A DNA stretch of 52,215 nucleotides from Candidatus Woesearchaeota archaeon (lineage in GTDB: Archaea; Nanobdellota; Nanobdellia; Pacearchaeales; GW2011-AR1). The stretch's first letter is position 1. The number at the start of each line of letters is the position of its first letter. The position numbers and the translations under genes are program-made. The stretch is from the NCBI GenBank assembly GCA_964419155.1, contig CAYQOK010000002.1:7705-59919 (forward strand), in the 5' to 3' direction. A model generated the notes under the pieces. That model was not told the origin of the DNA. It did no database searches and saw only the letters and a list, made by a program, of their open reading frames with translations. Below, in pieces: positions 987 through 52,215 of this stretch.

Positions 987-1098
987 TAAATCTGATTAAT
1001 TTCAAAAACCTAAAAATCCACTTATAGCTAAGGCTTCTCTACTCAGATCATTTACTTATTATAAAAAGATTTTTATAACGAATAGATTTTAAAATATA

Positions 1099-1575: not shown

Positions 1576-1581
1576 ACTATT

Positions 1582-2238: not shown

Positions 2239-2505
2239 TTAATTAATAATTCTTCTGATACTATCTATATGTTCTGCAATATCTTGACCTTTCTTTGTTA
2301 GTTTAATTAGTTTTATTCTTCCTTGTTTTTCAAAAACAACTAAATCTAACTTTTCCAATGTTTGCAAAATCTTAACTGCATGTGAATAAGTACAATCCAC
2401 TTCTTTTGCAAGAACAGAACCATATCTTGCTTTTGAAACCTTTTTAAGAGCAACCAACATTAATGATGGCTTTCTTCTAAAAAATATATCAAAGTTGTCT
2501 TTCAT
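2239..2505 (-). CDS. Small winged-helix transcriptional regulator
   Basis: An 88-aa protein with the pattern YGSVLAKEVDCTYSHAVKILQTLEKLDLVVFEKQGRIKLIKLTKKG, typical of an ArsR/MarR-like wHTH. Confidence 0.6.
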   Translation of the reverse strand: MKDNFDIFFRRKPSLMLVALKKVSKARYGSVLAKEVDCTYSHAVKILQTLEKLDLVVFEKQGRIKLIKLTKKGQDIAEHIDSIRRIIN

Positions 2506-2635
2506 TTGGTGATTTTATTGTGATTTATTTAAACTATATCCTTAAATCTATATATTAGATGATATAAAAGCAGCTTATAAAGTTTTCCCTCGTAAAATTC
2601 AACTAATCAGTAGTTAAAAGAACCAATCAAATTAA

Positions 2636-3286
2636 TTAACCAATAAATTTTTCACCAGTAAGCTCCTCATACATTGAAACATATCCCTTAGCTATTAGAT
2701 CTGTTAATGAACCTTTCATCTCAATAACTGTCAGACCATTAGAAATAGATTCTTTCATATACTCCCCGAGATCATCTGAAACCATTGCTAAAATAACCTC
2801 TTTTTTAGAAGTAATTACAGAAATATCAACAGAATCACTAAAGGATTTTTCAGTAAATATGTTTTTATTCACTATAGTAGAAGTATAATAATCTTCTCCT
2901 ACCTTAAATAATATCTTTGGATTTTTTCTAGATAAGGGATTATCATGGAGACATCCTGCACCAATAGCATATAACATATAATTAATATAAGTTTGGTTAA
3001 ACTCTTTTTCTGCCTTACTTAAAATTGATTCTAATGATAAATTATTATTTGTCAAATTGTCTTGATTAAGTTCTTTTAAAACACCATCCAGAGGATTATT
3101 TAAAATAATAGTATTATTAGTTTTTTCAAAAGAAGAAAAAATAATATGTCCTAAATAAAATAAAATAAATAAAAGAAAAAATATTAAAAAAGACTTGAAA
3201 AATAGTTTAAAATAATTTTTTCTTCTTTTTATAATCACCCCTGAATTAACCATAACAACATGAGGGCATTGGTATTTTAAAAACAT
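2636..3286 (-). CDS. Hypothetical membrane-anchored protein
   Basis: Long ORF with one N-terminal TM helix (LIFFLLFILFYLGHIIF). I recognise no motif, and the true start may be an internal Met. Confidence 0.45.
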   Translation of the reverse strand: MFLKYQCPHVVMVNSGVIIKRRKNYFKLFFKSFLIFFLLFILFYLGHIIFSSFEKTNNTIILNNPLDGVLKELNQDNLTNNNLSLESILSKAEKEFNQTYINYMLYAIGAGCLHDNPLSRKNPKILFKVGEDYYTSTIVNKNIFTEKSFSDSVDISVITSKKEVILAMVSDDLGEYMKESISNGLTVIEMKGSLTDLIAKGYVSMYEELTGEKFIG

Positions 3287-3341
3287 TTCTAAGAAAAGTT
3301 CAGATAAAAAGTTTTAAAAGATAAAAATACTTAAATAATTT

Positions 3342-4625
3342 ATGATAGATATAAAATTAATAAGAGAAAACCCTGATTTAGTTAAGGAAAACATAAAAAA
3401 GAAGTTTCAAGATGAAAAAATCCCTTTAATAGATAAAATAAAAAAACTTGACGAAGATTGGAGAAAATTAAAATATCAAGCAGATAATTTAAGATCTGAA
3501 AGAAACAAAATTTCAATAGCTATAAGCGAAGCTAAAAAATCAGAAAATAGTTCTAAAGCTAATGAACTATTAGAACATGCAAAACAAATACCTAATGAAC
3601 TTGAGAAAATTCAACAAAAAGAACAAAAATTAGAAAAACAAATTAATGAATTAATGTTTCAAATTCCAAACATAATACATAAATCAGTTCCAATTGGAAA
3701 AGATGATTCAGAAAATGTTGAACTTAAAAAAATAGGAACTCCCAAAGTTCCAGATTATCCCATAAACCACCATTCAAGAACAATTGAATCACTTGGTGGT
3801 GTTGATTTTGATTCTGCAAGGGAGACTTCTGGAAATGGATTTTATTTTATAACTGGAAAAATAGCAATATTACACTCTGCACTACTAGCATTAGCAAGAG
3901 ATTTAATGATACAACAAGATTTCGAATATGTTATTCCTCCATTTATGATAAGAAAAAAAGTTGTAGAGGGGGTCATGTCTTTTACTGATATGAACAATAT
4001 GATGTATAAAATAGAAGGAGAAGACCTTTATCTAATAGGAACCTCAGAACATTCGATGATAGGACGATTTATAGATAAAACATTAAACAAAAAAGAAATT
4101 CCAATAAAACTAACAAGTTATTCTCCTTGTTTTAGAAAAGAAGTAGGTTCACATGGGCTAGAAGAAAAAGGATTTTATAGATTACACCAATTTGAAAAAC
4201 AAGAAATGATTATAATTTGCGAACCTGAAGAATCTTATGAATGGTATAATAAAATGCTCCAGTATAGTATTGATTTATTTAAATCTCTTGAAATTCCAGT
4301 AAGAGTGTTAGAGTGTTGTTCAGGAGATTTAGCAGATTTAAAAGCAAAATCTTGCGATTTAGAAGCTTGGTCTCCGAGACAAAAAAAATATTTTGAAGTT
4401 GGTTCACTTACAAATATGGAAGAAGCACAAGCAAGAAGATTAAATATAAAAATTAATTCTCCAAAAGGAAATTATTATGCCCATACTTTAAACAATACTG
4501 TTTTAGCATCTCCAAGAGTAATAATTGCATTTATAGAAAACCATCAACAAAAAGATGGTTCAATAAAAATTCCAAAAGTACTCTGGAAGTACACTGGATT
4601 TAAAGAAATTAAACCGAAAAGATAA
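3342..4625 (+). CDS. serS: Seryl-tRNA synthetase
   Basis: Starts with the MIDIKLIRENPD N-terminal coiled-coil arm. Class II motifs are present (TSEHSMIG, SPCFRKEVGSHG, HTLNNTVLASPR). Confidence 0.95.
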   Translation: MIDIKLIRENPDLVKENIKKKFQDEKIPLIDKIKKLDEDWRKLKYQADNLRSERNKISIAISEAKKSENSSKANELLEHAKQIPNELEKIQQKEQKLEKQINELMFQIPNIIHKSVPIGKDDSENVELKKIGTPKVPDYPINHHSRTIESLGGVDFDSARETSGNGFYFITGKIAILHSALLALARDLMIQQDFEYVIPPFMIRKKVVEGVMSFTDMNNMMYKIEGEDLYLIGTSEHSMIGRFIDKTLNKKEIPIKLTSYSPCFRKEVGSHGLEEKGFYRLHQFEKQEMIIICEPEESYEWYNKMLQYSIDLFKSLEIPVRVLECCSGDLADLKAKSCDLEAWSPRQKKYFEVGSLTNMEEAQARRLNIKINSPKGNYYAHTLNNTVLASPRVIIAFIENHQQKDGSIKIPKVLWKYTGFKEIKPKR

Positions 4626-4732
4626 ATAAAAAATAATTTAAACCTTCTTTTTCTTTAAGATTAATAAATCCTTGTAACTATTAAAAAAAGATATTTTAAA
4701 AACAATATAAACTAATTAGAACATAATTAAAC

Positions 4733-5359
4733 ATGGAAAATAAAGAATCTAAAAAAACAATAGAAAAAATAAAAATATTAGCAGCAGGAGACATACACGG
4801 AGATTCAAAAAGTTGTCAAAGATTAGCAAGAAAAGCAGAAAAAGAAAATGTGGACTTAGTAATTTTAACAGGTGATTTAATAGGGCTTTTTGAAACAAAA
4901 GAAATAATAAAACCGTTTTTAAGTAAAAATAAAAAAGTTATTTTTGTTCCGGGAAATTGGGAATCCAGAGAAGATGCTGAAGAAATAAGTAAAAAGTATA
5001 ATATAAAAAACATTGAAGACCATTATTTAATTTATAAAAATACAGGGATTTTTGGAATTGGATTAGCAGATTGGAAGATAGGAAACCAAAAAGAAGGTGT
5101 TTTTGAAAAACTGAAAAGAGAAAATGAAAAATTAAAAAATCTTGAAAAAAGAATTTTAGTTAGCCACCACCATGCAGCAGGAACCAAATCAGAATTATCT
5201 GGATTTAAAGGAGATTTAGAATTAAGGAAGGCAATAGATAAATTACAACCAGATTTATTTATTTCAGGACACATTCATGAATTAGAGGGTGTTGAAGAAA
5301 AGATAGGAAAAACAAGAGTTATAAATGTAGGAAGAAAGGGAAAAATAATTGAATTATAA
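4733..5359 (+). CDS. Calcineurin-like metallophosphoesterase
   Basis: Motifs GDIHG, TGDL, PGNWE and SGHIHE occur in the canonical order. Confidence 0.8.
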   Translation: MENKESKKTIEKIKILAAGDIHGDSKSCQRLARKAEKENVDLVILTGDLIGLFETKEIIKPFLSKNKKVIFVPGNWESREDAEEISKKYNIKNIEDHYLIYKNTGIFGIGLADWKIGNQKEGVFEKLKRENEKLKNLEKRILVSHHHAAGTKSELSGFKGDLELRKAIDKLQPDLFISGHIHELEGVEEKIGKTRVINVGRKGKIIEL

Positions 5360-7613
5360 AATGCAGAAAAAAACAATTAATCAAAAACAGGATTTTATGA
5401 GTATAACAAAAGCAAAAGTTACCTATGAAGTTGAATCTCCAAAAAAACCCGCCTTAGAACAAATACAAAAAATAGAAAAAAAAGGAATTAAAAAAAACAC
5501 AAGAAAAGCAAAAACAACTAAAGAACCTAAAATAAAAAAAGAATATACTCTTATTGTTACTGAAAAACCTCAGGCAGCTACAAAAATTGCAAATGCACTC
5601 TCAAACGGAGACTACAGGGAATTAATTGATTCTGGAATAAGAAGTTATTTATTTGAGAAAAATAATAAAAAAATAATTGTTGCGTGTGCAGTAGGTCATT
5701 TATTTGGATTATCTCAAGATGAAAAGGGTGCCCATTATCCTATTTTCAATATTTCATGGAAACCTAACTTTAAGATAAGAAAAAAAGATTTTACAAAAAG
5801 ATATTATGATGTTTTAAGTAGATTAGTAAAAAAATCAAATGAAATAATTATAGCAACAGATTATGATACTGAGGGAGAAGTCATTGGATATAATATTGTT
5901 AGATTCATTGCCCATGAACCTGATGCAAAAAGAATGAAGTTTTCTTCACTAACAAAAGAAGAATTAGAGCAAGCATATCAAAATGTCCATCCAAAAATAG
6001 ATTGGGGTCAAGCAATAGCAGGAGAAACAAGACATTACATTGATTGGTATTATGGAATAAATCTGTCAAGAGCATTAATGAACTCTGTAAAGTCAACAGG
6101 AAAATTTAAAATAATGAGTATTGGAAGAATACAGGGCCCAACACTAAAACTTATTGTAGATAAAGAAAAAGAAATAAAAAAATTTGAGCCACAGGCATTT
6201 TGGAGAGTCTACATCAATATAGTAGAAAAAAAAGACAAGAAAAATAAATTAAAATTAAAATATATAAAAGATATTACAAAAAAAGATGATTTAAGAATGT
6301 TCGAAGAATTAAAAGGAGAAACAGCAGAAGTATCAACAAAGAAAACTCAACAAACAATTATTCCCCCTCCACCTTTCGACCTAACTTCACTACAAACAGA
6401 AGCATATAAATTTTTTTCAATTAACCCTGCAAGAACATTAGAAATTGCTCAAAGACTTTATTTAACAGGACTTATATCTTATCCAAGAACAAATAGCCAA
6501 AAAATACCAGATTCAGTTAATCCACAGCAAATTCTTAAAAAATTAATGAAATATTATCCGCAAATTCAAAAAATAACAAAAACTAAACCCATTGAAGGAA
6601 AAAAATCAGATCCTGCACACCCTAGTATAATGCCCACAGGAGAACTTCAAAACCTCCAAGGAGAAGAAGAAAAAATATATGATTTAATTGCAAGAAGATT
6701 TATCTCTTGTTTCTCAGATAATGCAAAAGTAGAAAACAAAACAATTACAGCTGTAACAAAATCAAAAAATCAACCAGAAAAAGAATTAACTTTCAAAGCA
6801 AGAGGATTAGAAATTAAAGAAAAAGGATGGATGGATATCTATAAAACTAAATTAAATGAAAAAGAGATTAAAGATATGGATGGTATTGCAGATATTAAAA
6901 AAGTAATTATAGAAGAAGATGAAACAAAACCCCCTAGAAGATATTCTCCTGCATCAATAATCTCAGAATTAGAAAAAAGAGACCTTGGAACCAAGGCAAC
7001 AAGAGCTGGAATATTAGAAACTCTTTATAAAAGAGATTATGTGAGGGGACAAAAATCAATTGAAGCTACACCAATTGGATTAAGATTAATTGAAAGTTTA
7101 GAAAAATATTCTCCAATTATCGTAGATGAAGAACTAACAAAAACAATGGAAAAAGATACTGAAAAAATAAGGGAATCTACAAAAGAATTAGAAAAAAAAC
7201 AAGAATTAATTTTGATAAAAGCAAGAAAAGCAGTTGAGATGATTTCACAAGACTTTCATAAAAATGAGGAAAAAATAGGAAAAGACATAATTAATGCAAA
7301 TGAAGAACTATGGAAACAACAAGAAATTGAAAATGAGTTATTTGAATGTCCTGTATGTAAAAAAGGAAAATTAACAATAAAATACTCTCCAAAAGTAAAA
7401 AAATACTTTGTAGCCTGTAATGCATATCCAAATTGCAAAACAACATTTTCACTTCCTCCAAACGGAAATTTTAAAAAAACAGATAAGATATGTGAAAAGT
7501 GTGGTTTCCGGATGTTAATGTCCTTAAAAAAAGGGAAAAAACCATGGATATTTTGTTTTAATCCAAAATGTTGGGAAAAAGAAAAAACAGAAGAAAGCTC
7601 TGGAGAAGAATAA
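5349..7613 (+). CDS. topA: Type IA DNA topoisomerase (archaeal TopA/Topo III-like) with C-terminal zinc ribbons
   Basis: Has a Toprim start LIVTEKPQAA, DYDTEGE, the active-site region ISYPRTNSQ and C-terminal CPVC...C...C zinc fingers. A Lys-rich extension of about 65 aa precedes Toprim, and the start is uncertain. Confidence 0.9.
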   Translation: MNYKMQKKTINQKQDFMSITKAKVTYEVESPKKPALEQIQKIEKKGIKKNTRKAKTTKEPKIKKEYTLIVTEKPQAATKIANALSNGDYRELIDSGIRSYLFEKNNKKIIVACAVGHLFGLSQDEKGAHYPIFNISWKPNFKIRKKDFTKRYYDVLSRLVKKSNEIIIATDYDTEGEVIGYNIVRFIAHEPDAKRMKFSSLTKEELEQAYQNVHPKIDWGQAIAGETRHYIDWYYGINLSRALMNSVKSTGKFKIMSIGRIQGPTLKLIVDKEKEIKKFEPQAFWRVYINIVEKKDKKNKLKLKYIKDITKKDDLRMFEELKGETAEVSTKKTQQTIIPPPPFDLTSLQTEAYKFFSINPARTLEIAQRLYLTGLISYPRTNSQKIPDSVNPQQILKKLMKYYPQIQKITKTKPIEGKKSDPAHPSIMPTGELQNLQGEEEKIYDLIARRFISCFSDNAKVENKTITAVTKSKNQPEKELTFKARGLEIKEKGWMDIYKTKLNEKEIKDMDGIADIKKVIIEEDETKPPRRYSPASIISELEKRDLGTKATRAGILETLYKRDYVRGQKSIEATPIGLRLIESLEKYSPIIVDEELTKTMEKDTEKIRESTKELEKKQELILIKARKAVEMISQDFHKNEEKIGKDIINANEELWKQQEIENELFECPVCKKGKLTIKYSPKVKKYFVACNAYPNCKTTFSLPPNGNFKKTDKICEKCGFRMLMSLKKGKKPWIFCFNPKCWEKEKTEESSGEE

Positions 7614-12121: not shown

Positions 12122-13240
12122 CTAAGATAAATTTAACTCATATCTTAATATTGCTCCGACACCTGAAAGATTCCAAAATTGTTGACCTTCTACAGTATCT
12201 ACTGATATAATTTCAATATTAGATGAAATCCCCTCTGCTTTTAATTTTAATTCATGAGATTCTGATTTTTTAAGATTCCTACTTAAAAATAAAGTATCAA
12301 CAGCAGCCAGATTTAATGCTTTTTTAACAGGTTCAAGCCCATATGCTGTTTTTTTAGGAAACTTTCCAAGCATATTAAAAAAATTCTCCAAAATCTTTTT
12401 TTCATGTATAATTTCTTGTTCTGCTAAAATGTCCTGACTTTCACCAACTAAAAGTTCAAGACCATGCTCATCTGTATAACCAATATCTTTCATCCCAATT
12501 ATTTTATCTCTTAATGCAGTAACTAAACCTCCGTCTTTAACAAAATCATCTTTTGTTGGAATCGGACCTCCAATAATTATCCCCTTTAATTTAGCTAAAT
12601 CAAAAAAATGAGTTTTTAATGCTAATGCACATTTTTTATAAAAATCCCTTGCCTTTCCTTCAATAACTCTTGAATAACGGGCAGCACTCTGCCCACCTGC
12701 TGCAACTTTTCCAGGTACTCCAGACTCTAATTTTTCAAGAACAATAATTCTCTTTCCTTCAAGAAGACCAATAGTTGCTTCTCTCCTATCAATAACAAAA
12801 AGCCCATATATTTCTTTAATCTCCAATAACTCCTTTAGAGGATCTAAAACAAATACCTGATCACATCTATAAAGTCTAGCTCCCAAAGGTTCTGGGGGTT
12901 CAATAACCCAAATCTCATGATCTTCCTGACCTTCTACCTGAGAAACATTTCCTGAGAATAACACCAATCCATTAGAAGGCGTTTGTTGAATTTGTTTTAA
13001 CTGCCTTCCAATTCGTTCTAATGCTTCAACAACATTTTTCTGAGTTGTTTTACTTTTAATATTTTTTGCAGTAGACTTTTCAGATTCTATTTGATCTGCA
13101 ACTGTATTAATATTATGTCCTGCAGGAATATACACTGAAACTAATTCAGTATGCCTTCCTCTAATCTTATCTAATTTTTCAATTAATTCACCAAGTTCCT
13201 CTTTATCTATCTTATATATTGAATCCTTTGTTATAGCCAT
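12122..13240 (-). CDS. prf1: Peptide chain release factor aRF1
   Basis: The NIKS motif (AKNIKSKTT) and GGQ motif (AAGGQSAARYSR) are both present. Confidence 0.9.
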   Translation of the reverse strand: MAITKDSIYKIDKEELGELIEKLDKIRGRHTELVSVYIPAGHNINTVADQIESEKSTAKNIKSKTTQKNVVEALERIGRQLKQIQQTPSNGLVLFSGNVSQVEGQEDHEIWVIEPPEPLGARLYRCDQVFVLDPLKELLEIKEIYGLFVIDRREATIGLLEGKRIIVLEKLESGVPGKVAAGGQSAARYSRVIEGKARDFYKKCALALKTHFFDLAKLKGIIIGGPIPTKDDFVKDGGLVTALRDKIIGMKDIGYTDEHGLELLVGESQDILAEQEIIHEKKILENFFNMLGKFPKKTAYGLEPVKKALNLAAVDTLFLSRNLKKSESHELKLKAEGISSNIEIISVDTVEGQQFWNLSGVGAILRYELNLS

Positions 13241-16277: not shown

Positions 16278-17453
16278 TTGATAAATATGGGGATATTTAA
16301 TTTTTTTAAAAAAAAGCAAAAAACTAGAGCGTTATTACAAGAAGTTCATTTTAATGAAGTAAATAATGTACTAAAAAACAATAAAGAAATTATAAATGCA
16401 AAAGAAGTTTCAATATTCTTAAAAATAAATAGTTCAATTAAGGAATTAATAAAAAAATTAGAAATTTTATTAGAATCACTTGAAAAAGTAAATTATAAAA
16501 AAATAAATGCAGAAGAAAAATTAAAATTAATATCAAAAAAAGGTCTTGAAAATTTTATTATTCATTTAAATGCCCTCATTCAAGACTTAAATTCTTTATG
16601 CGAACATGAAAATAATCTTGAGAACTTAATAAATAGAATAAATCAAATATTTCAAAATTTTGAAGAAAGATCAAAAATGAGCTATGAAAAAGCCACCATA
16701 TTTATTGGAGATGAAATAAGAAAAGTTAAAATAACTATATCAGAATTTTTTAAAGAAAATCATAAAATAATTCAAGAAAATAATGAGACTTTTAATAAAA
16801 AGACTTTATTAAAAGAAGTAGAAGAGTTATTAAAAAAAGTAGAAAACCTAAATAAAATAATAAAAAAATTGTCTCAAGAAAAAGAAAAAGCAAATGAAAC
16901 AATTAATGAATTTATGCAACAAATAGAACACAACTTAAAAATGATTAATGAAATCAAAAACACAGAGGAATATAAAAATAAAATAAATGAAATTGAAAAA
17001 AATCAAGAAAAATTAATTAATCTTAAAAAAGAGGTATTCAAAATTAAGGAATCTATTAATTTTAAGGCACTAACAAAAAGATATCATAAAGAGCATAAAA
17101 AAATGAGTATAATTAAAGATTTTAATGAAAATTTTTATCAAAAATTTGATGAAGATAATTTTAAAGAGTTCTTTGAAACAATTAATGAAACAGATTTAGA
17201 CAAACAAAAATTAGAAAAAAGAATAAAAGAACTTGAGAAAGAAAAAAAGATAATTGAAAAATCAAACAAACAAATAGATGAAATAGATGAACTTGAGAAA
17301 GATATTAGTTATTTAGAATTAGAAATTGAAAAACAAAATTCATTAGTTTTAGAAGTTCAAGACAAACAAGAGAAAATAAATAAAACCAAAAAAGAAAAAT
17401 TCATAGAGATTAAAGAAAAGATAAAAAAATTAGGATATGATCTATTAGAATAA
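16278..17453 (+). CDS. Long coiled-coil protein (Lys/Glu/Asn-rich), function unknown
   Basis: Heptad-like charged sequence throughout, with no enzymatic motif. It lies upstream of the paralog pair and minD. Confidence 0.5.
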   Translation: MINMGIFNFFKKKQKTRALLQEVHFNEVNNVLKNNKEIINAKEVSIFLKINSSIKELIKKLEILLESLEKVNYKKINAEEKLKLISKKGLENFIIHLNALIQDLNSLCEHENNLENLINRINQIFQNFEERSKMSYEKATIFIGDEIRKVKITISEFFKENHKIIQENNETFNKKTLLKEVEELLKKVENLNKIIKKLSQEKEKANETINEFMQQIEHNLKMINEIKNTEEYKNKINEIEKNQEKLINLKKEVFKIKESINFKALTKRYHKEHKKMSIIKDFNENFYQKFDEDNFKEFFETINETDLDKQKLEKRIKELEKEKKIIEKSNKQIDEIDELEKDISYLELEIEKQNSLVLEVQDKQEKINKTKKEKFIEIKEKIKKLGYDLLE

Positions 17454-42455: not shown

Positions 42456-44066
42456 TTAAATACTACTTAAGTCAGGCATAGAATCTTTTTCTTTTTTATC
42501 TCCTACTTCTGAGATTATTGCATCACTAGTTAAAATAAGTGATGCTACGCTTGCTGCGCCTTGTAATGCAACCCTTACAACCTTAACTGGATCAATAACT
42601 CCCCTTTCAATTAAATCAACAATCTCTCCTGCCCTTGCATCATAACCTTGATTCTCATCATTCATTTCTTTTATCTTTTCAACGTAAACAAACCCATTTT
42701 TACCTGAATTTTCAACTAATTGAATTACAGGTTCTTCTAAAGATCTTCTTATAATATCTACGCCAATGTTTTCATCTTCTTGAAGTTTAAAATTACTTAG
42801 TGACTTAGATGCATTTAATAATGCAATTCCGCCCCCAACAACATAACCTTCTTCAACAGCAGCTCTTGTTGCGTTTAAAGCATCATCAATTCTCAATTTT
42901 TTTTCTTTAAGCTCTGTCTCAGTAGCTGCTCCAACTTCAATAACTGCAACACCACCCATTAGCTTACCAAGTCTTTTTCTCAAATTATCTTTCTCATAAT
43001 CTGAAGATTCATTTTTAATTTGTAATTCAATAGACCGAACTCTTTTTTCAATATTCTCATTATTTCCTTGCCCCCCAATAATAAGTGTTTTATCTTTAGC
43101 ACACCTAACTTTTTCAGTAGTTCCTAAATAATTAACAGCATCACTAATTTTTATTCCTTTTTCAGAACTAATTACTTCCCCGCCTGTTAAGATAGCAATA
43201 TCTTCTAAAATCTGTTTTTTTTCCTCACCAAAACCCGGACTTTTAATAGCACAACACTTTATAGTTCCTCTAAGAATATTTAAAATAAGTGTTGCTAAAA
43301 CTTCTTGACTTAATCCTTCACTAATAATCAAAAGTGGTCTGGATTCTTGCATAGATTTTTCAATTACAGGAACAAAATCTTGCACATTATTTATATTTCC
43401 ATCATAAATTAAAACAAGAGGAGATTCCAATACAGATTCCATTTTTTCTTGATCAGTAATCATATAAGGGCTTTCAAAACCCTCATTTAATTCCATACCC
43501 TCAACAACTTTTAATTTTGTTTCAATAGAATTAGATTCTTCAACAGTTATTATTCCTTCATTTCCTACTTTTTTCATAGCATCAAAAATTAATTTACCAA
43601 TTACCTCATCATTATTTGCAGAAATTGTTGCTACTTGTTGTATTTTCTCATCAGAATCAACCATTATCTTTTTATTATTTAAAAATTCAACTACATTTTC
43701 AACTGCTTTTTCAATTCCTTTTTTAATTTGAATTGAATTAGCACCAGAAGAAATATTTTTAAGTCCTTGTTTAACAATAGATTGTAATAATAATGAAGAA
43801 GTTGTTGTTCCATCTCCCACCTTTGACTGGGTTTTTTGAGCAACTTCTTTAACTAATTCAGCTCCAACTTTTTCAAAACCTTCTTCTAATTCAATTTCTT
43901 CTGCAATTGTAACTCCATCATTAACAATTTCTACACTATATCCTTTTGATAAAACAACATTTTTTCCCTGAGGTCCCAATGTAATTTTAATTGCATTTAC
44001 TGCAGTATCAATTCCATTCATTAATTGTTTTCTTGCTTCTTCTCCAAAAATTATTTTTTTTACCAT
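42456..44066 (-). CDS. groEL: Group I chaperonin GroEL (Cpn60)
   Basis: Has KKIIFGEEARKQL, ITLGPQGKNVVL, AGDGTTT-like VGDGTTT and GGGIALL. It lacks a C-terminal GGM repeat. Confidence 0.93.
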   Translation of the reverse strand: MVKKIIFGEEARKQLMNGIDTAVNAIKITLGPQGKNVVLSKGYSVEIVNDGVTIAEEIELEEGFEKVGAELVKEVAQKTQSKVGDGTTTSSLLLQSIVKQGLKNISSGANSIQIKKGIEKAVENVVEFLNNKKIMVDSDEKIQQVATISANNDEVIGKLIFDAMKKVGNEGIITVEESNSIETKLKVVEGMELNEGFESPYMITDQEKMESVLESPLVLIYDGNINNVQDFVPVIEKSMQESRPLLIISEGLSQEVLATLILNILRGTIKCCAIKSPGFGEEKKQILEDIAILTGGEVISSEKGIKISDAVNYLGTTEKVRCAKDKTLIIGGQGNNENIEKRVRSIELQIKNESSDYEKDNLRKRLGKLMGGVAVIEVGAATETELKEKKLRIDDALNATRAAVEEGYVVGGGIALLNASKSLSNFKLQEDENIGVDIIRRSLEEPVIQLVENSGKNGFVYVEKIKEMNDENQGYDARAGEIVDLIERGVIDPVKVVRVALQGAASVASLILTSDAIISEVGDKKEKDSMPDLSSI

Positions 44067-46853: not shown

Positions 46854-47321
46854 TCAAAAAAGATTATTATGTTTTTTAACTGCAAAAAACCAACACTTTT
46901 CATTATCATATTTTGGATTAGATTTCCAAATCTTCTTAAAATAAGTTAATTTGTACTTATGTTCATCACCAAAAAACGGGTCATAAAAATAAATATACTT
47001 GCCATCAATTTTTTTTAAAATAGAATAATGATCAGTTTTTTCAGGAAGATAAAAATAACAAATTATAATTATAAAACCCTTCTTTTGATATTCTTTTAAG
47101 CTATTAATTGTTGCATTTCTCATTACAATATAATTTAATTTGAATTTTTCTGCAACAATTGGAAAACTTTTATGCCAAGTACCCCTTACTTTATTTGTGT
47201 TAAGTAATTTTGCAACTTGTTTTTCAGATTTTTTAAACCCACAAAATTCAAGAACCATCCTCATAGTAGAAGCCCCACAAGTATACTTGGTTTCTTGTTT
47301 ATGAAATGGAAATCTAGTCAT
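46854..47321 (-). CDS. Stand-alone C39-like papain-fold cysteine peptidase
   Basis: Has Q-x5-C (HKQETKYTCGASTMRMVL) near the N-terminus and a downstream His (KTDHYSIL), as in Peptidase_C39/C39_2 domains. No fused ABC transporter. Confidence 0.65.
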   Translation of the reverse strand: MTRFPFHKQETKYTCGASTMRMVLEFCGFKKSEKQVAKLLNTNKVRGTWHKSFPIVAEKFKLNYIVMRNATINSLKEYQKKGFIIIICYFYLPEKTDHYSILKKIDGKYIYFYDPFFGDEHKYKLTYFKKIWKSNPKYDNEKCWFFAVKKHNNLF

Positions 47322-47506
47322 AAGTTATATGCAGTTCCTTAACTTTATATAATTATTGTTAAATCTCAAAATAAAGTTATAGGAATCACGTTTATATTGT
47401 TTTAAAATAAGATTTTTTAAGTGATGATTAAATAAAAAAGACTCTGTATTTTTTGTTTCTTTTTTTGAAAAAAAATTTAAACCTAAATACAATTACAACT
47501 AACATT

Positions 47507-47576
47507 GAGCTTAAGAAGAATTTTCAAAGTAATTGAAGATTCATGTAGAGTCTGCAAAGCGAAGCTCTTTAAGCTC
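47507..47576. repeat. CTTAAG-bounded imperfect hairpin (spacer R0)
   Basis: GAGCTTAAG (47507-47515) pairs with CTTTAAGCTC (47567-47576), with one extra T. An inner stem GAATTTTCAA/TTGAAGATTC is present. The architecture matches 52010-52133. Confidence 0.6.
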
Positions 47577-47640
47577 TGTTATGTGTTTTTTCTCCACAAA
47601 AAAAATTACATAGTGAAACAGAACAACAGTATGATACAAT

Positions 47641-48072
47641 TCAACCAGACAGATATCTTGAAATCAAGTCAACTTTTTCTTTACGATTAATTAATTGATA
47701 AAATCTTTTAGCATATTCAAGAGGCAAGATTGGAATTTTCAAATCATTCCAAAAGATTTTTTCAGTTTTATCAAACATATCTAATTCTCTATCGCCATAA
47801 GAATTAATTTCAATTTCAAAATTATTAATATCGCAAACAATAGAGTAACCATTTATTTTTTGACTGAAAAAATCTTTGATAATATATTTTTTCAGGGCGT
47901 TTCTAAAAATCTCAATGCCTTCATAATTTGTAGTAATATCTAAATCTTGAACTAAAACTTCAACACCTTGAATCTTAAGATTTGCACTACCTTCTAATCT
48001 CCAAATAAATTCTTTACCTTTAAGATTATCTAAAATGATTTGTAAAATTTCTTTGATATCTTTTTCATCCAT
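47641..48072 (-). CDS. Minimal nucleotidyltransferase-fold protein (pol-beta superfamily)
   Basis: Has G-S then D-x-D (LEGSANLKIQGVEVLVQDLDITT), the hallmark of MNT/KNTase-like NTases. Confidence 0.6.
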   Translation of the reverse strand: MDEKDIKEILQIILDNLKGKEFIWRLEGSANLKIQGVEVLVQDLDITTNYEGIEIFRNALKKYIIKDFFSQKINGYSIVCDINNFEIEINSYGDRELDMFDKTEKIFWNDLKIPILPLEYAKRFYQLINRKEKVDLISRYLSG

Positions 48073-48144
48073 AATGCTAAAAAATTCTTTAATCTATATA
48101 AATTTTCTTAAGAGGCAAACCAAGTAATATTTCGTCTAACATCT

Positions 48145-48214
48145 GGATTTAGAAAAGTTTTTACAAAGCAAAAATTTGGGAAAATCTAGAGCAGAGAGAT
48201 TTTCCCCTAAATCC
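48145..48214. repeat. Nested hairpin in spacer R1
   Basis: GGATTTAG (48145-48152) pairs with CTAAATCC (48207-48214). Perfect 10-bp inner stem GGGAAAATCT (48178-48187) / AGATTTTCCC (48197-48206). Confidence 0.6.
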
Positions 48215-48367
48215 TTATTAAACATCCAAAACGAAGTGGGGGGTGATCAAGAATTTTTCACTTCGTGAAAAATTAAAGAAGTAGTTTTATGAGTGTATCT
48301 ATATTAATTTAAGGGTAGTAATCCAAACGAAAGAGTTATAAATAAATAGTGATATCCTAAATTTATT

Positions 48368-48772
48368 ATGACAGAAAATCAAAATCCACAATATGTTAAA
48401 AAAGAAGACGGAAAAGTGACCCTTATAGAAAGAGTGACAGATGGGCTTAAAGCAATTCCCCCAATTTTAGGATGCACTGCTGGAGCTTATTTATTAGATT
48501 TTTCTGGATACATAAGCAATGTTGCTGAAATTTTGCCGGCAAATAATTTGAATTTAGGATATCATCTTGCAGCAGGTTCGGGTTTATATGGAGGATACAC
48601 TTCTAAAGAAAATAGAAAAATTGCATCACTTGTAATTTTAGCAAGTTCTTTTATCCCTGAAATTATAATGTTTACCCAAGATGGAAATTTAAGAAGTGTA
48701 GGAACAACTTCTGCTACAAAGTTGATTGGCTATGAAGTTGGTTATATAATCGGATATATTTTTGGAGAATAA
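48368..48772 (+). CDS. Gly-rich putative membrane protein with C-terminal glycine-zipper
   Basis: Has hydrophobic/Gly-rich segments (ILGCTAGAYLL, AAGSGLYGGY) and the terminal GYEVGYIIGYIFGE. No known family recognised. Confidence 0.45.
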   Translation: MTENQNPQYVKKEDGKVTLIERVTDGLKAIPPILGCTAGAYLLDFSGYISNVAEILPANNLNLGYHLAAGSGLYGGYTSKENRKIASLVILASSFIPEIIMFTQDGNLRSVGTTSATKLIGYEVGYIIGYIFGE

Positions 48773-48837
48773 ACCTTTCGCGTTCTATAATTTTAGCCCA
48801 AATCTCAAATTGAAACGAACATCACGATTAAAAAAAG

Positions 48838-48867
48838 TTAAAATTTTGGGTTGCTTCAAAATTTTAA
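48838..48867. other. Perfect 11-bp stem-loop downstream of 48368..48772
   Basis: Stem TTAAAATTTTG, loop ggttgctt, stem CAAAATTTTAA, followed by TTT. It lies 66 nt after the stop codon and is a possible terminator. Confidence 0.35.
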
Positions 48868-49063
48868 TTTAAGCGATTTTCTGCGAGATGTCTAAAGGAT
48901 TTTTTTTCTCAAAAAAAAACCGCAAAGTTGTTCGAAGGCACTTGTATTAATTTTAAAAATGGCACTTCAGGACTGCGGGACGCTGTCAAAATAAATAAGA
49001 AATGTGTGCGTCTTCTTTGCTTCTTTCTTTCTAAGAAAGAGGGGGGCACTTTTCTTTTTACTT

Positions 49064-49258
49064 TCAAAACTCTCTCCATTCAATTCCCAAATCCATAAAG
49101 TCTATTTCTGCAAATCTATTAAGATTTATCCTTCCCTTTCCTGTAAGATACTTAAAAATTTCCATTGTTTGAATATTTGCTACCGCTCCAGCAATTGGTC
49201 CGAGGTTTCCCGTCTGTCTAATGTCTCTTATCTTTTCTAAATCTTTTAGAGTGTCCAT
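49064..49258 (-). CDS. C-terminal fragment of the E1-like (ThiF/MoeB) enzyme, separated by a frameshift
   Basis: GNLGPIAGAVANIQTMEIFKYLTG matches the conserved post-crossover helix of ThiF/MoeB. It overlaps the upstream ORF by 13 nt in a different frame. Confidence 0.65.
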   Translation of the reverse strand: MDTLKDLEKIRDIRQTGNLGPIAGAVANIQTMEIFKYLTGKGRINLNRFAEIDFMDLGIEWREF

Positions 49259-50073
49259 TTTTTTTGGTATTCTAAAAAATCATCAAAAGTTTTAGTGATT
49301 CCAGGGATAATGACTGGACCAACCATTCCTAAATGTAGATTATATCCTCCTGCAACACAATAAGCAACTTGGTGATGATTAGCATATTCATCAATGATTC
49401 TTGTTGTTTCTGCAACTGATGGAGAATCAGCACAATTTACTAGAAAATTACAACCAAAAACAATATCTTCTAAATCATGATTTGGTTCGACTCTTTTTTT
49501 GAAGGGAGCTATATTTGCATCCTTCAATTTTTCTTTTACAACATCCACTTTATACTTCCCCACATCCCCAGAATCAAAAAATAATTGTCTGTTAAAATTA
49601 CTTTTCTCTACGACATCAGGGTCAGTAATTCTTATCTCCCCCACACCAATTTGATACAGCCCATTTACAATCCAAGTTCCAATTCCACCAACTCCAAAAA
49701 CAGCAACTTTGGAATTCTTTATTCTCTTTTGTATCTCTAATGTTTCTTTCCTTGAATCTGTAAGTTCGTCCAAAAATAATAATTGTCTATAATGTCTTCC
49801 TTTTTCTAAATCAGATTCATATCTTCTAACAATCCCTTCTTTTTCTAAGGCATTTAAACAAGCATCTATATCTTGAGGACTATATTTAGAAGATAATCTT
49901 TCAGTTAAACCTTGTTCTGTTTGCTCAGAATCAAGGAAAGTAATCACATCCTTAACTAGAGAATCTACTTGAAATTTTTTTATTCTTCGTGTTGCAGTTG
50001 AAATAAAGATATAGTTATCTTCAGTATCTTTCAAGACATACAAGGAATCTTTAATTTTCAACTTACTACTCAT
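49246..50073 (-). CDS. E1-like ThiF/MoeB-family adenylyltransferase with N-terminal PqqD/RRE-like winged-helix domain (truncated by frameshift at an A8 run)
   Basis: Has the nucleotide loop VAVFGVGGIGTW and ITDPDVVEKSNFNRQ. The N-terminal 90 aa have beta-beta-beta plus helices ending LNALEKEGIV, as in PqqD/RRE. Confidence 0.7.
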   Translation of the reverse strand: MSSKLKIKDSLYVLKDTEDNYIFISTATRRIKKFQVDSLVKDVITFLDSEQTEQGLTERLSSKYSPQDIDACLNALEKEGIVRRYESDLEKGRHYRQLLFLDELTDSRKETLEIQKRIKNSKVAVFGVGGIGTWIVNGLYQIGVGEIRITDPDVVEKSNFNRQLFFDSGDVGKYKVDVVKEKLKDANIAPFKKRVEPNHDLEDIVFGCNFLVNCADSPSVAETTRIIDEYANHHQVAYCVAGGYNLHLGMVGPVIIPGITKTFDDFLEYQKKWTL

Positions 50074-50641
50074 TTGAAATTATTTCTCCATATTTGATAT
50101 TTTTACTATTTGGTTCTAATAAAATCTCTCCAGAGTCATCTATCGGGGCGATAATTTTGTAATTTTTTAATCTTTTCCTCAATAAAGAATCTTTTCTTAA
50201 ATGCCAACAACCAAGAATAATAATTATTGGAAGCTTTGTTTTTGATTTATATTCCAAAATCTTTGAGAGATGGTATTTCTCCCTTTTTTCAACTAAATTA
50301 TTTAATTTTTCTTCCTCTTCTCTTGTAAGCCCTTTTTGATTTTTTATTTTTTTTTGCAAATTTTCATCAAATCCGAAATTATGAAAATCAATCCCAATTA
50401 ATTTAATCTTTTTGTCAAAACATAATTTTATCAGTTTTTCAACTTCATTAAAGGAAGTCACATCAGAAATAAATTTTTTCTCGAAAATTTCTTTAAATTG
50501 GTCTGCTTGTTCTAATTTTAAATCTTCTAATTCTTCACTTAAGATAAATTCTGGATTCATAATGTTAATAATTTCTTTTTGTTTTGAGAAATCATCTAAA
50601 AAAAAGTGAGTACTACCTATAAAAATGAAAGATAAAGCCAT
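50066..50641 (-). CDS. Putative TraB/PrgY/Tiki-superfamily metalloprotease-like protein (tentative)
   Basis: Has an N-terminal G-x-x-H (FIGSTHF), acidic ILSEEL and a C-terminal G-x-x-H (ILGCWHL), in the order seen in TraB/Tiki. GGAG lies 8 nt before the ATG. An 8-nt overlap with the E1-like gene suggests translational coupling. Confidence 0.4.
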   Translation of the reverse strand: MALSFIFIGSTHFFLDDFSKQKEIINIMNPEFILSEELEDLKLEQADQFKEIFEKKFISDVTSFNEVEKLIKLCFDKKIKLIGIDFHNFGFDENLQKKIKNQKGLTREEEEKLNNLVEKREKYHLSKILEYKSKTKLPIIIILGCWHLRKDSLLRKRLKNYKIIAPIDDSGEILLEPNSKNIKYGEIISNE

Positions 50642-50660
50642 TTTTTACTCCAAGAAAGAT

Positions 50661-50813
50661 TTACATCCAATATTTAATACTTGTTGGACCTGCGTAAACC
50701 TCATCTTTAACTTTTCGAAGCCCCTCATAAAGAGGTTTTTCTATTGTAAGGTAAGGTCTTGCTTCTTCTTTTCTTGGTGTAACTCCTTCCAAAGTTTTTT
50801 CAAGGGTTTCCAT
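50661..50813 (-). CDS. Unannotated 50-aa peptide ORF, first gene of the operon (candidate precursor peptide)
   Basis: Hand translation gives METLEKTLEGVTPRKEEARPYLTIEKPLYEGLRKVKDEVYAGPTSIKYWM. It ends 19 nt upstream of the next ATG, and a TATA-like box lies upstream. Confidence 0.45.
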   Translation of the reverse strand: METLEKTLEGVTPRKEEARPYLTIEKPLYEGLRKVKDEVYAGPTSIKYWM

Positions 50814-50860
50814 ATTTTAAGAGTAAATAGACTCCTTTATATATTTTATTATTCTGAATG
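50814..50860 (-). promoter_or_regulatory. Putative archaeal promoter of the peptide/TraB-like/E1-like operon
   Basis: The minus strand reads AATAAAATATATAAAGGAGTCTATTTACTCTTAAAATATG. An A/T TATA-like box lies about 25-35 nt before the ATG. Confidence 0.3.
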
Positions 50861-51008
50861 TGAAAAATGCCCAATTAAATCTCAAAATCTTTGATTTTGA
50901 CCATCTGTTTTTCTGAAAGAAAAACCAAGCTCACATCTCCAAATTAGGGGTGGTTGGTCGGGGGATGGCTAAAGAGAGATTTTAGCTATTTTTAATTCCT
51001 TAAGTTTA

Positions 51009-51059
51009 GTGCCTTCAAACAATTAGACATAACATTTGGTTAAACAACCCGAAGGGCAC
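51009..51059. repeat. Hairpin GTGCCTTC ... GAAGGGCAC with one extra G
   Basis: Read directly. The CGAAGGCA core recurs at 48933-48941 and 52182-52190. Confidence 0.5.
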
Positions 51060-51158
51060 GAGTGGAGCATAGCGACCTCCAAAAATTCAATTTTGATGGA
51101 GAAGTCTGCAATGCTTCGTAGTCGGTTAAGCCCGATGTTCTATTCTTCCGATAGGATT

Positions 51159-51197
51159 GGATTTTAATGCAATGTTCGGACAAAGTCCGAAAAATCC
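51159..51197. repeat. Nested hairpin present only in the left arm (insertion relative to the right arm)
   Basis: GGATTTT aatgcaatg TTCGGAC aaa GTCCGAA AAATCC. This segment lies between modules that are adjacent in the right arm. Confidence 0.55.
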
Positions 51198-51272
51198 AAA
51201 GTTCAGAAAACGGCCGTCTTTTAAATGAACGTAGTGATACATCAAGACACAAAATTGAGAGCCACGAGCTAA

Positions 51273-51917
51273 TTATTTTTTAATATTTTCTACCCAATTA
51301 GGAATATTGTTACTCTTTAGATTTTTAAATTCTGTTTGGCACCTTAATTTACCTTTATTTTCAAGATTATTACATATTTTAATATTATCTTGTGAGTAAG
51401 CAACATCAACATAACACTCAACTAAATGATATTCATCTAATTGTTTGCATAATTCAACATTTTCCTTCAATTGAGCAATATCTGATATACAATGATATTT
51501 CCAATATTCCGCATCCTTTCCTTCAAAAATACATTGAGTAACACTTTGACTTGAAACGGCTATGCAATACTGTTTTATGTATGCAGAAAAATCATAATCG
51601 TCAATCTTATCGTCTGATTTGATATTTTGACAAATAGTTGGATTCTGTGTGTTCCTCGCAATCCAACCGTAACATCTGTTAACATAATTACTTGCTATGG
51701 AAGTGTTATATTCTGTAGCGGGATGATTTTCACACAGTTTAATATCTTTATAACCGTTTGAAGCTAGATCTTGATAACAAGCTATATCTGTTTGCTCACA
51801 ATCTTCAATTTGTCTTGGAAAATTTGAATTTTCTGTTTTTTGATTTGTACATCCAATAATAATTAACAATCCTACTACAAGCAATATTACCAGAAAAATA
51901 ATTATGTTTCTTCCCAC
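51273..51917 (-). CDS. Cys-rich secreted protein, probable lipoprotein
   Basis: Has a signal peptide ending in the lipobox-like IIIGC, then about 16 Cys in recurring C-x(n)-C helical-looking repeats. Confidence 0.65.
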   Translation of the reverse strand: MGRNIIIFLVILLVVGLLIIIGCTNQKTENSNFPRQIEDCEQTDIACYQDLASNGYKDIKLCENHPATEYNTSIASNYVNRCYGWIARNTQNPTICQNIKSDDKIDDYDFSAYIKQYCIAVSSQSVTQCIFEGKDAEYWKYHCISDIAQLKENVELCKQLDEYHLVECYVDVAYSQDNIKICNNLENKGKLRCQTEFKNLKSNNIPNWVENIKK

Positions 51918-51958
51918 ACTGGAATCATTAATTAAGATTTATATAAACCTTTCTAGTG

Positions 51959-52209
51959 GCTCGTGGCTCTATCTGTTTTTCGGCCGTTTTCTGAATTGAA
52001 TAGAACATCGGGCTTAAGGGAGGTTCAATTTCCTCGAAAAAATTCTCCTCGTGAAACAGAGCTGAGAATTTTTTCAGAGCTGAAATTGAATTTGGGTGTA
52101 GTGAGGTGCAACCGAACGAAACCCTTTAAGCCCTGTTAGTTTCTTTTTACGAAGTAAAAATTGATTTTTAGTGCAACGATGCCGAAGGCAAAAAATCAAA
52201 GTTTTTGAG
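51959..52209 (-). repeat. Right arm of the inverted repeat bracketing gene 51273..51917
   Basis: Contains GCTCGTGGCTCT (51959-51970), CGGCCGTTTTCTGAA (51981-51995), GAATAGAACATCGGGCTTAA (51998-52017) and AAAAATCAAAGTTTTTGAG (52191-52209). These are reverse complements of the left-arm modules. Confidence 0.8.
52010..52133. repeat. Long three-stem imperfect hairpin (CTTAAG-bounded) in spacer R5
   Basis: GGGCTTAAGGG (52010-20) pairs with CCCTTTAAGCCC (52122-33). TTCAATTTC (52024-32) pairs with GAAATTGAA (52082-90). GAAAAAATTCTC (52036-47) pairs perfectly with GAGAATTTTTTC (52064-75). Confidence 0.7.
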
Positions 52210-52215
52210 AATGCC

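Follow-up and report, generated by a model that had tools for sequence, protein, structure and literature searches.

Long inverted repeats bracket a gene for a Cys-rich lipoprotein near the end of a 52,215-nucleotide stretch of archaeal DNA (hereafter the window), which raises the question of what kind of element the gene belongs to. The initial annotation had described the spacers on either side of the gene as collinear reverse-complement arms, and this observation held. Repeat and pattern searches confirmed three exact inverted pairs, at 51126-51145 and 51998-52017 (20/20), at 51202-51216 and 51981-51995 (15/15) and at 51258-51269 and 51959-51970 (12/12), each of which occurs only at these two places in the window, while zero matches are expected from dinucleotide shuffles. 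The modules are collinear, with indels between them of 56 versus 2 nt and 41 versus 10 nt. A global MAFFT alignment of the two arms did not place the modules in register because of these large indels, so that local BLAST and reading by eye were needed. The inner ends lie 3 nt after the stop codon and 41 nt before the GTG start, rather than the 4 and 42 nt first given. A fourth, outer module is also real, but is located at 50880-50898 and 52192-52210 and matches at 18/19 positions, instead of 17/19 at 50881-50899 and 52191-52209. This outer module does not belong to the repeat set of the lipoprotein gene, but pairs the 3' flank of the cassette upstream with a similar stretch in the 5' region of the cassette downstream. 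Furthermore, the arms are not private to this gene, as their central parts are copies of a widespread repeated element.

The repeated element was found in at least 120 metagenome contigs (numbered below with the prefix L), with conservation ending sharply within GATGTT, between GATGT and the final T. It is about 115-180 nt long and forms a long imperfect hairpin, and up to 4 copies occur per contig, always co-oriented and 0.4-5 kb apart. Read in the direction of the array, which is the minus strand of the window, the element consists of 6-7 variable nt followed by AAC, 3-5 nt, GCTTAAC, the hairpin, GTTAAGC, CCGAT and G/TT with 6-7 variable nt, where the slash marks the inferred crossover. Each unit between elements, here called a cassette, starts right after a conserved ...GATG/TT and ends at ...AAC. 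In the consensus hairpin, 19 of 43 pairs show compensatory changes, and the fold contains an R box, a 5-nt spacer and an L box of 7-8 bp, with 2 unpaired bases on one arm. This is the geometry of the attC sites of integrons. AAC was present in 21 of 21 and GTT in 28 of 32 distinct boxes, whereas the strict purine-pyrimidine patterns RYYYAAC and GTTRRRY were matched by only 3 of 21 and 5 of 32, respectively.

Two such elements delimit the lipoprotein cassette, which spans 973 bp (52005-51033, minus strand) as defined by the two G/TT junctions. The first, attC-like element 1 (51998-52143, minus strand; nhmmer profile hit E=7e-44), consists of R'' GAAACTAAC (52143-52135), a spacer, L'' GCTTAAA, a long imperfect hairpin, L' CTTAAGC, the spacer CCGAT and R' G/TTCTATTC, which places the inferred crossover between 52006 and 52005. 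The cassette then opens with its 5' flank modules (51959-52005), a1 (TTCTATTC), a2 (TTCAGAAAACGGCCG, 51995-51981) and a3 (AGAGCCACGAGC, 51970-51959), which are exact complements of the modules in the 3' flank. These are followed by TTTATATAAA (51938-51947), which resembles an archaeal TATA box on the basis of the known archaeal promoter consensus and is centred about 26 nt upstream of the GTG start; if functional, it would give a cassette-internal promoter and a leaderless mRNA. The cargo gene (51273-51917, minus strand) encodes a 214-residue Cys-rich protein with an N-terminal signal and lipobox (IIIGC). Only 2 homologues were found among 5.8 billion proteins, searches of Pfam and NCBIfam returned no hit, and the AlphaFold2 model (pLDDT 83.6) is a predicted all alpha-helical repeat for which a fold search gave no significant PDB match, only generic helical-repeat matches. 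The 3' flank (51146-51269) carries a3' (51269-51258) and a2' (51216-51202), and then two hairpins (51201-51146), P1 (TTGGATTTT...AAAATCCAA with an inner hairpin) and P2. The cassette ends in attC-like element 2 (51025-51145, minus strand), which is shorter and has a degenerate 3' half, reading R'' GAATAGAAC (51145-51137), ATCGG, GCTTAAC ... GTTTAAC CAAAT G/TTATGTCT, with the inferred crossover between 51033 and 51032. Although the profile hit here is weaker (51141-51084, E=1.5e-6), the related locus L004 has the canonical ...CGATG/TTATGTCT at the same place.

The neighbouring sequences follow the same organisation. At the end of the window, 52144-52215 (minus strand) is the truncated 3' end of an upstream cassette, X, holding the cassette-specific x2' (GGCATTCTCAAAAA), a P1 stem with an inner C-TTC-G hairpin and the conserved CGTTGCACT, and the P2 hairpin. 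This stretch is 91-97% identical to about 30 metagenome loci, and x2' and x1' complement the 5' end of X (TTAGTTTCAATTTTTGAGAATGCC) seen in L128, L150 and L153. On the other side lies a terminal-type cassette, Z (48926-51032, minus strand), containing z2 (51024-51009), the conserved motif CCCCCGACCAACCACCCC (50964-50947), AAAATCAAAGATTTTGAGA (50898-50880, one half of the outer module), a 50-aa ORF, a 191-aa ORF and a ThiF-like gene, and ending at z2' (48941-48926). z2 and z2' are 14/16 complementary, and the only other match in the window allowing up to 3 mismatches is a 3-mismatch hit at 17168-17183. The same terminal motif follows the last elements in other loci. Beyond Z, a degenerate remnant ending in GATG/TTCGTTTCAAT was read manually at 48809-48897 and is one of only three GATGTTN6AAT matches in the window, all on the minus strand within 48.1-52.0 kb. 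A partial element comprising only the R' side, GATG/TTAGACGAAAT, was assigned with low confidence at 48129-48163 (E=0.65, supported by the exact junction motif), and a short degenerate element, ACACATAAC AGA GCTTAAA ... CTTAAGC TCAAT G/TTAGTTGT, lies at 47495-47586 (E=0.0085); all three are on the minus strand, and these older elements are partly called by eye.

The nature of the inverted modules became apparent when the two ends of each cassette were compared. The variable hexamer after G/TT complemented the hexamer before the next AAC at 6/6 positions in 10 and at 5/6 positions in 2 of 21 distinct cassettes, whereas random pairing gives 6/6 in 0.8% and at least 5/6 in 4.8% of cases; in the remaining 9 cassettes the hexamers do not match. 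The complementarity usually continues for 12-16 nt or more, with runs of at least 12 nt in 13 of 21 cassettes against a control mean of 7 and a 95th percentile of 9, and the 20-, 15- and 12-nt modules around the lipoprotein gene are this feature. The P1 stem also covaries across loci, as 65 of 99 distinct regions are at least 8/9 complementary, with 14 distinct stem sequences. When the junction of a hypothetical excised lipoprotein cassette was folded with DNA parameters, it formed one hairpin pairing a3 with a3', a2 with a2' and a1 with a1' collinearly (-70 kcal/mol). These data bear on the possibility, raised by the initial annotation, of a composite flanked by MITEs, which at first sight is suggested by a multicopy palindromic repeat of about 150 nt with terminal inverted repeats of 14-16 nt (GGGCTTAA...TTAAGCCC) that often sits at contig ends. 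However, the copies are clustered and co-oriented, no target-site duplication was seen, no transposase is linked, and the sequences outside the element co-vary with the far end of the cassette and not with the element's own other side. This reading is not supported and is considered very unlikely.

The possibility of an invertible segment, also raised initially, is likewise not supported. Long inverted repeats do bracket a surface-protein gene, and four of 20 cassette ORFs point against the array, but the orientation is the same in three independent assemblies (the window, L001 and L005), and among loci oriented by their elements 140 homologous segments of 300 bp or more are co-oriented and 0 are inverted. 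Moreover, the promoter-like TATA box lies inside the repeats together with the gene, so that flipping would not switch expression, and the two flanks are asymmetric, with P1 and P2 always on the 3' side. This makes phase variation the least likely of the explanations considered. In contrast, the third proposal, a recombination-exchangeable cassette, is supported in essence, and the initial interpretation was thus right only in part. A 95% identical copy of the lipoprotein cassette in L005 has a different downstream neighbour, other cassettes are found behind different neighbours, and the 5' end of X is joined after a G in more than 10 contexts. It should be noted that the difference between the window and L005 has its breakpoint on the R''/L'' side of the element, which a simple G/TT excision does not predict.

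No recombinase is present in the window, but the expectation that one might lie beyond its end received indirect support. A XerA-like tyrosine recombinase is the commonest, and the only recurrent, neighbour of the elements in related loci, transcribed divergently and located 0.8-0.9 kb from the first element in 7 of 8 contigs, and the last 72 nt of the window are the 3' end of the cassette that sits next to this recombinase in L150 and L213. Reciprocally, of 4 long contigs found through the recombinase alone, 3 have the elements directly upstream and the fourth is an empty platform. Between the recombinase gene and the first cassette lies a palindromic attI-like site ending in ...TG/TT. In 6 of 6 recombinase-bearing loci, GTT plus the complement of the first cassette's R'' hexamer was found after ...TG within 80-210 nt of the recombinase start, and the same holds in L247 and L248, although the cleavage position itself is inferred. 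In the array-less locus L250, the terminal motif seen in Z directly follows the attI-like site.

The recombinase is not of the IntI type. Matches to the profile TIGR02249 were obtained only in two pieces that skip profile positions 181-239, and the alignment to VchIntIA (PDB 2a3v) skips chain residues 208-242, corresponding to the IntI-specific additional domain of roughly 35 residues near patch III, whereas Pyrococcus abyssi XerA (PDB 4a8e) aligns end to end. The best family match is the XerA equivalog NF040815, for which 2 of the 4 proteins tested scored 237 and 225 bits, above the cut-off of 220. The gene also sits in a partly conserved core-gene neighbourhood, both with an array (L248) and without one (L250), and it may simply be the host's housekeeping XerA with no proven link to the repeats. 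A possible alternative is that the recombinase is the chromosome-dimer resolvase, that the palindrome next to its gene is the dif site, and that cassettes integrate there as duplex or folded DNA, as CTX phage does in Vibrio and dif modules do on Acinetobacter plasmids; this differs mainly in which enzyme and which site family are involved, not in the cassette logic. The attI-like region holds an imperfect palindrome with arms of 11-12 nt and a spacer of 7-8 nt (GGAKATATAACC-N7-GGTTAMTATCC), compared with the two 11-nt arms and 6-nt spacer of a dif core. The inferred crossover, however, lies 4-6 nt outside the palindrome and not at its spacer, the duplex cassette junctions lack dyad symmetry with only the left arm conserved, dif is not adjacent to xerA in Thermococcales (PMC2958812), and the site geometry and own-end complementarity are those of attC. 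This alternative is regarded as unlikely, though it is the strongest competitor.

Taken together, the results are best explained by integron-like site-specific cassette capture, with the lipoprotein gene being a mobile gene cassette in an array on the chromosome of a low-GC DPANN archaeon, probably Pacearchaeota-like, and a probability of roughly 0.68 is assigned to this reading. The repeat family, its organisation in arrays, the precise junctions, the complementarity of cassette ends, the covariation, the linkage to the recombinase and the differences in cassette content between relatives are directly demonstrated by the sequences, whereas the chemistry (the cleavage point and a single-stranded substrate), the role of this recombinase as the responsible enzyme and its presence just beyond the window end are inferred. 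By analogy with attC and attI, a tyrosine recombinase would cut at G/TT, and a cassette excised as a circle would carry one continuous hairpin site. After insertion, the outer 3' arm of that hairpin (a1, a2 and a3) would end up at the 5' end of the cassette while its partner (a3', a2' and a1') stays at the 3' end, a split that would produce the collinear inverted modules bracketing the gene.

An RNA-level role of the repeats, either as structured RNAs or as processing stems bracketing each ORF (such as archaeal bulge-helix-bulge or RNase processing that releases or circularises monocistronic RNAs), was also considered. The strong covariation, the conserved unpaired motifs (CGTTGCACT, CCAAATT, CTCTGAAAA and TTTTCGAGG), the higher GC content of the elements relative to their surroundings and the resemblance of the long 5' and 3' complementarity to rRNA processing stems would be consistent with this. 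However, Rfam searches of the arms and of eight related loci returned no match at gathering or permissive thresholds, and if the TATA box of the lipoprotein cassette is used, its own transcript would lack a1-a3. An RNA role also does not explain the precise G/TT junctions in many contexts, the linked recombinase or the cassette turnover, and this explanation is therefore considered improbable. On the array strand, 39 C-TNC-G but 0 C-GNA-G triloops were counted. In RNA these would be UUC triloops on the sense strand, which are not a known stable RNA motif, and a reading as UUCG tetraloops was rejected since the stems only close as 3-nt loops. On the complementary DNA strand they correspond to C-GNA-G triloops, from which it is inferred that the strand complementary to the cassette ORFs probably folds as single-stranded DNA, although counts of G-T versus A-C wobbles depended too strongly on the alignment to decide which strand folds.

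Integrons, both bacterial and archaeal (Ghaly et al. 2022, PMC9668308), share with these loci the divergent tyrosine recombinase gene, the adjacent attI-like insertion point and a tandem array of small, mostly single-ORF and mostly co-oriented cassettes, separated by imperfect-palindrome sites with AAC...GTT boundaries and a G/TT junction that are similar to one another within the family, with the 5' end of each cassette complementing its own R''. The cargo is in both cases largely of unknown function and includes proteins with N-terminal hydrophobic (signal- or TM-like) segments. Apart from the recombinase and the R-box pattern, the present loci appear to differ in their long sites, measuring 115-182 nt from R'' to R' (median 142) with strongly conserved interiors, where integron attC sites have 57-141 bp and a variable interior. 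Their stem continues far beyond the R box (a2 and a3) and carries the two extra hairpins P1 and P2, so that the functional site would be about 300-400 nt with the crossover in the middle of one arm. Integron cassettes are promoterless and expressed from a common Pc promoter, whereas the lipoprotein cassette, the only one checked, may differ in this respect, as it carries the promoter-like TATA box of its own. Taken alone, the window corresponds to a CALIN, a cluster of co-oriented attC-like sites lacking an integrase, except that a recombinase, which is not of the IntI type that integron finders look for, is consistently found next to the arrays once longer contigs are examined. Ghaly et al. 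list 3 attCs and 0 IntI in a Pacearchaeales MAG (GCA_001872325.1) of the same GTDB species as L248, and the family may therefore already have been scored as a CALIN. IMEX elements, CTX phage integration at dif and the pdif modules of Acinetobacter plasmids likewise involve a Xer-family recombinase and elements accumulating in tandem next to the site, with a folded single-strand hairpin as substrate in CTX phage and sites in alternating orientation bounding pdif modules, but no clear 11-6-11 dif-like core is present at the cassette junctions and the cassettes are single genes, not phages or islands. The Vibrio cholerae repeats of the superintegron are also a long (about 120 nt), highly conserved attC family in a sedentary chromosomal array, yet the host domain, the recombinase type and the extended outer stems differ.

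Integrons are the textbook system for rapid gene capture and were reported in archaea only in 2022, from a handful of IntI genes and mostly integrase-less attC clusters. The present locus and its relatives suggest that, in one of the most abundant groups of uncultured archaea, cassette arrays are tied to a Xer-type recombinase and an attI-like palindrome beside its gene. If that recombinase does the work, the definition of an integron integrase becomes wider, a concrete model appears for how integron integrases could have evolved from Xer, and a tractable recombinase and site pair becomes available, built from small protein and DNA components that can be synthesised. A more far-reaching possibility, tentative and judged slightly less likely than not, is that Pacearchaeota-like DPANN archaea carry a distinct and widespread class of gene-capture platform that works like an integron but is run by a XerA-type recombinase without the IntI domain and using composite, unusually long hairpins whose outer stems are split across each cassette. 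This would be either a convergent invention or a relative of the Xer-like ancestor from which integron integrases arose, and would mean that surveys keyed on IntI systematically miss the integrase of such arrays and score them as CALINs. The locus also points to how genome-reduced symbionts with tiny genomes may swap surface and secreted proteins such as this lipoprotein, which bears on host attachment.

A few further readings were examined and set aside. A search of GTDB genome contigs with a 14-mer returned only single chance hits in unrelated genomes. Protein-coding remnants in the arms were rejected since the indels between modules are not all multiples of 3. A guide-RNA scaffold of the TnpB or IscB type, suggested by the sharp end of conservation followed by variable sequence, was considered, but no such protein is linked and the variable part pairs with the cassette's own far end. 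Finally, a bacterial (CPR) affiliation, initially suggested by GroEL, was rejected once MCM, archaeal topoisomerase I, GatD/E and ATP-dependent ligase were found.

The initial annotation had described the lipoprotein gene as bracketed by collinear inverted repeats, and this observation held: the three inner modules are exact, with 20 of 20 matches between 51126-51145 and 51998-52017, 15 of 15 between 51202-51216 and 51981-51995, and 12 of 12 between 51258-51269 and 51959-51970. The modules are collinear and each occurs only at these two places in the window, where shuffled sequences are expected to give none, while the outer module matches at 18 of 19 positions between 50880-50898 and 52192-52210. 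The two arms are richer in G+C (0.37-0.40) than their surroundings (0.22-0.30), and a search of Rfam found nothing in them. The bracketed ORF (51273-51917, minus strand) encodes a 214-aa Cys-rich protein with a signal/lipobox N-terminus, which is predicted (pLDDT 83.6) to be an all-alpha helical-repeat protein with regularly spaced Cys pairs, and for which no solved structure matches at E<0.001.

The window encodes MCM, archaeal-type topoisomerase I, GatD/GatE and an ATP-dependent DNA ligase, and is therefore archaeal. A bacterial-type GroEL (42456-44066, minus strand; TIGR02348, 688 bits) is an oddity in this otherwise archaeal contig, and is presumably a horizontally acquired chaperonin. As homologues of the recombinase found in related loci (described below) are named Candidatus Pacearchaeota by NCBI, the host is inferred to be a Pacearchaeota-like DPANN archaeon.

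Only two homologues of the lipoprotein were found. One of them (57% identity, contig L006) lies in a higher-GC, unrelated context without the repeats. The other (98%) lies on a JGI contig (L005) in which the gene is again bracketed by the same modules, but is followed by a second, unrelated gene for a 184-aa secreted/membrane protein, which is bracketed by its own, different inverted repeats. The spacers share a core of the form ...AACAGGGCTTAAC...(hairpin)...GGTTAAGCCCGATGTT..., and a metagenome scan for TTCGAGG-N12-16-TTAAGCCCGATGT returned at least 120 contigs, in which conservation stops sharply after GATGT|T and resumes only as ..AAT. A profile of the core found 192 copies in these loci, with up to four per contig, always co-oriented and with many lying at contig ends. 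In the window, the profile found a full copy at 52143-51994 and a half copy at 51141-51084, both on the minus strand.

Read in array direction (the minus strand of the window), an inter-gene unit starts with a cassette-specific stretch (x2'), followed by CT, a stem (P1) enclosing a small hairpin and the invariant CGTTGCACT, a second hairpin (P2), and 6-7 variable nt (x1') followed by AAC. After a 3-5-nt spacer follow GCTTAAC, a long imperfect hairpin, GTTAAGC and CCGAT, and the unit closes with G|TT followed by 6-7 variable nt (x1), (C)AAT and x2. RNAalifold on 23 diverse copies gave a single long hairpin of 43 pairs, of which 19 show compensatory changes, with two bases (GA) unpaired between the outer AACA/TGTT and the GGGCTTAA/TTAAGCCC helices. 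P1 is at least 8/9 complementary in 65 of 99 distinct copies, in 14 different sequence versions. The small hairpin loops show a complete strand bias, with 39 C-TNC-G triloops and no C-GNA-G on this strand, and the complementary strand therefore carries GNA triloops. GNA triloops form unusually stable DNA mini-hairpins, whereas UUC triloops are not known as a recognised stable RNA motif.

The variable hexamer after G|TT complements the hexamer before the AAC of the next element at 6/6 positions in 10 and at 5/6 in 2 of 21 distinct cassettes, whereas random pairings give 6/6 in 0.8%. The complementarity continues beyond the hexamer, as 13 of 21 cassettes have exact complementary runs of at least 12 nt between their 5' and 3' flanks, compared to a control mean of 7 and a 95th percentile of 9. 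The 20-, 15- and 12-nt modules of the initial annotation are this property for the lipoprotein cassette, corresponding to its 5' flank modules a1 (plus the conserved L'/spacer), a2 and a3, respectively. When the 3' flank of the cassette plus its own element (51272-51033) was joined in silico to its 5' flank (52005-51918), as in a hypothetical excised circle, the result folded with DNA parameters as one hairpin pairing a3/a3', a2/a2' and a1/a1', with P1 and P2 as side branches, at -70 kcal/mol.

Clustering of all ORFs of the loci showed that the commonest neighbour is a tyrosine recombinase of 264-305 aa, present in 8 contigs, in 7 of which it is divergent from the array and 0.8-0.9 kb from the first element. 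It matches the XerA equivalog above the cut-off, but matches the integron-integrase model only in two pieces that skip the IntI-specific domain, and alignments to PDB structures show the same pattern. In 6 of 6 loci the predicted 5' end of the first cassette was found after ...TG|, 80-210 nt from the recombinase start. In the long contigs L247, L248 and L250 this point lies just past an imperfect palindrome, GGAKATATAACC-N7-GGTTAMTATCC, and the main rival to an integron-like reading is an IMEX-like use of the host XerA at a dif-like palindrome. In a reciprocal test, four long contigs were found through recombinase homologues alone, of which three have elements directly upstream and divergent, while the fourth (L250) has none. 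In L250, the palindrome is instead followed directly by the motif CCCCCGACCACCCGCCCC (6405-6430, minus strand). This conserved motif, CCCC(C/T)GACCA(A)CC(A/G)CCCC, follows the last element of arrays, being seen also in loci L131, L139 and L241, and in the window (50964-50947) it lies in the region after the last good element. L248 and L250 share flanking core genes, showing that the recombinase gene is chromosomal and syntenic. Recombinases of different loci are only 35-66% identical, while the elements can exceed 90% identity.

Comparison of loci indicated that the cassettes are mobile. The window and L005 share the lipoprotein cassette at 95% identity but differ in what follows it, several cassettes occur behind different predecessors, and the 5' end of cassette X, the one preceding the lipoprotein cassette, is joined after a G in more than 10 different contexts. 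Furthermore, independent short assemblies break within a few nucleotides of the element junctions: the Logan contig L001 (compared with window 51006-52009) ends at 52009, and the Logan contig L004 (compared with 50070-51035) starts at CGATG|TT, as would be expected if the neighbours differ within the populations. No homologous segment was inverted relative to the elements (140 co-oriented versus 0 inverted), and cassette ORFs are mostly co-directional with the array (16 versus 4). The repeats are real and functional-looking, and mark a mobile cassette rather than an invertible or MITE-flanked segment. The interpretation of the initial annotation, which had offered these three alternatives, was supported only in part. 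While the repeats, the junctions and the differences between loci were observed, the recombination mechanism is inferred, by analogy and from comparative data only.

The layout and site geometry are those of integrons, which were reported in archaea by Ghaly et al. 2022 (PMC9668308). Their table lists a Pacearchaeales MAG of the same GTDB species as L248 with 3 attCs and no IntI, and this family has therefore probably been counted as a CALIN. The XerA-type recombinase linkage, the attI-like palindrome, the outer stems split across each cassette and the P1/P2 hairpins were not found described in the literature searched. The lipoprotein cassette's own TATA-like box would also be atypical for integron cassettes, though this was examined in this one cassette only.

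On the minus strand, from its right end, the window contains the 3' end of X (52215-52144), element 1 (52143-51998), the lipoprotein cassette (52005-51033), which includes the degenerate element 2 (51145-51025), and a terminal-type cassette with a 50-aa ORF, a 191-aa ORF and a ThiF-like gene, closed by z2' (48941-48926), followed by element remnants at 48897-48809, 48163-48129 and 47586-47495. The outer module, which the initial annotation had placed with the lipoprotein gene, pairs the 3' flank of X with an X-like stretch (AAAATCAAAGATTTTGAGA) of the terminal cassette, and the same stretch occurs inside X in locus L230. In loci L150 and L213, X lies between the attI-like site and the first element. 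A recombinase is therefore likely within a few kb beyond position 52215, although X-type flanks span 0.65-6 kb in other loci. Cassette X itself (L150, reverse complement; L153:139-845) is about 860 bp and has no long ORF, but holds a GC-rich stretch of about 200 nt and, on the opposite strand, a small Lys-rich ORF of about 45 codons. It gave no Rfam hit and is tandemly duplicated in L150.

The ThiF/E1-like gene of the terminal cassette (49064-50073, minus strand) is split into 275-aa and 64-aa ORFs in the window, but is a single 336-aa gene in the 99.3%-identical Logan contig L002, which differs by one gap, reflecting either a frameshift or an assembly error. The terminal-type cassette region (46854-50813, minus strand) carries the 50-aa ORF, the 191-aa protein, which has no family match, the ThiF-like E1 enzyme, a nucleotidyltransferase-like protein and a C39-peptidase-like protein, which together could form a peptide-maturation or conjugation-like module. 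Among the related loci, two array-bearing ones carry restriction-modification or defence-type methyltransferase genes: in L165 a MAD2-like methyltransferase gene (527-3067) lies beside the recombinase, and in L247 type I R-M genes (1-6642) lie just past the last detected element. In a further locus, L204, two small adjacent ORFs (12687-13204) directly follow the last element.
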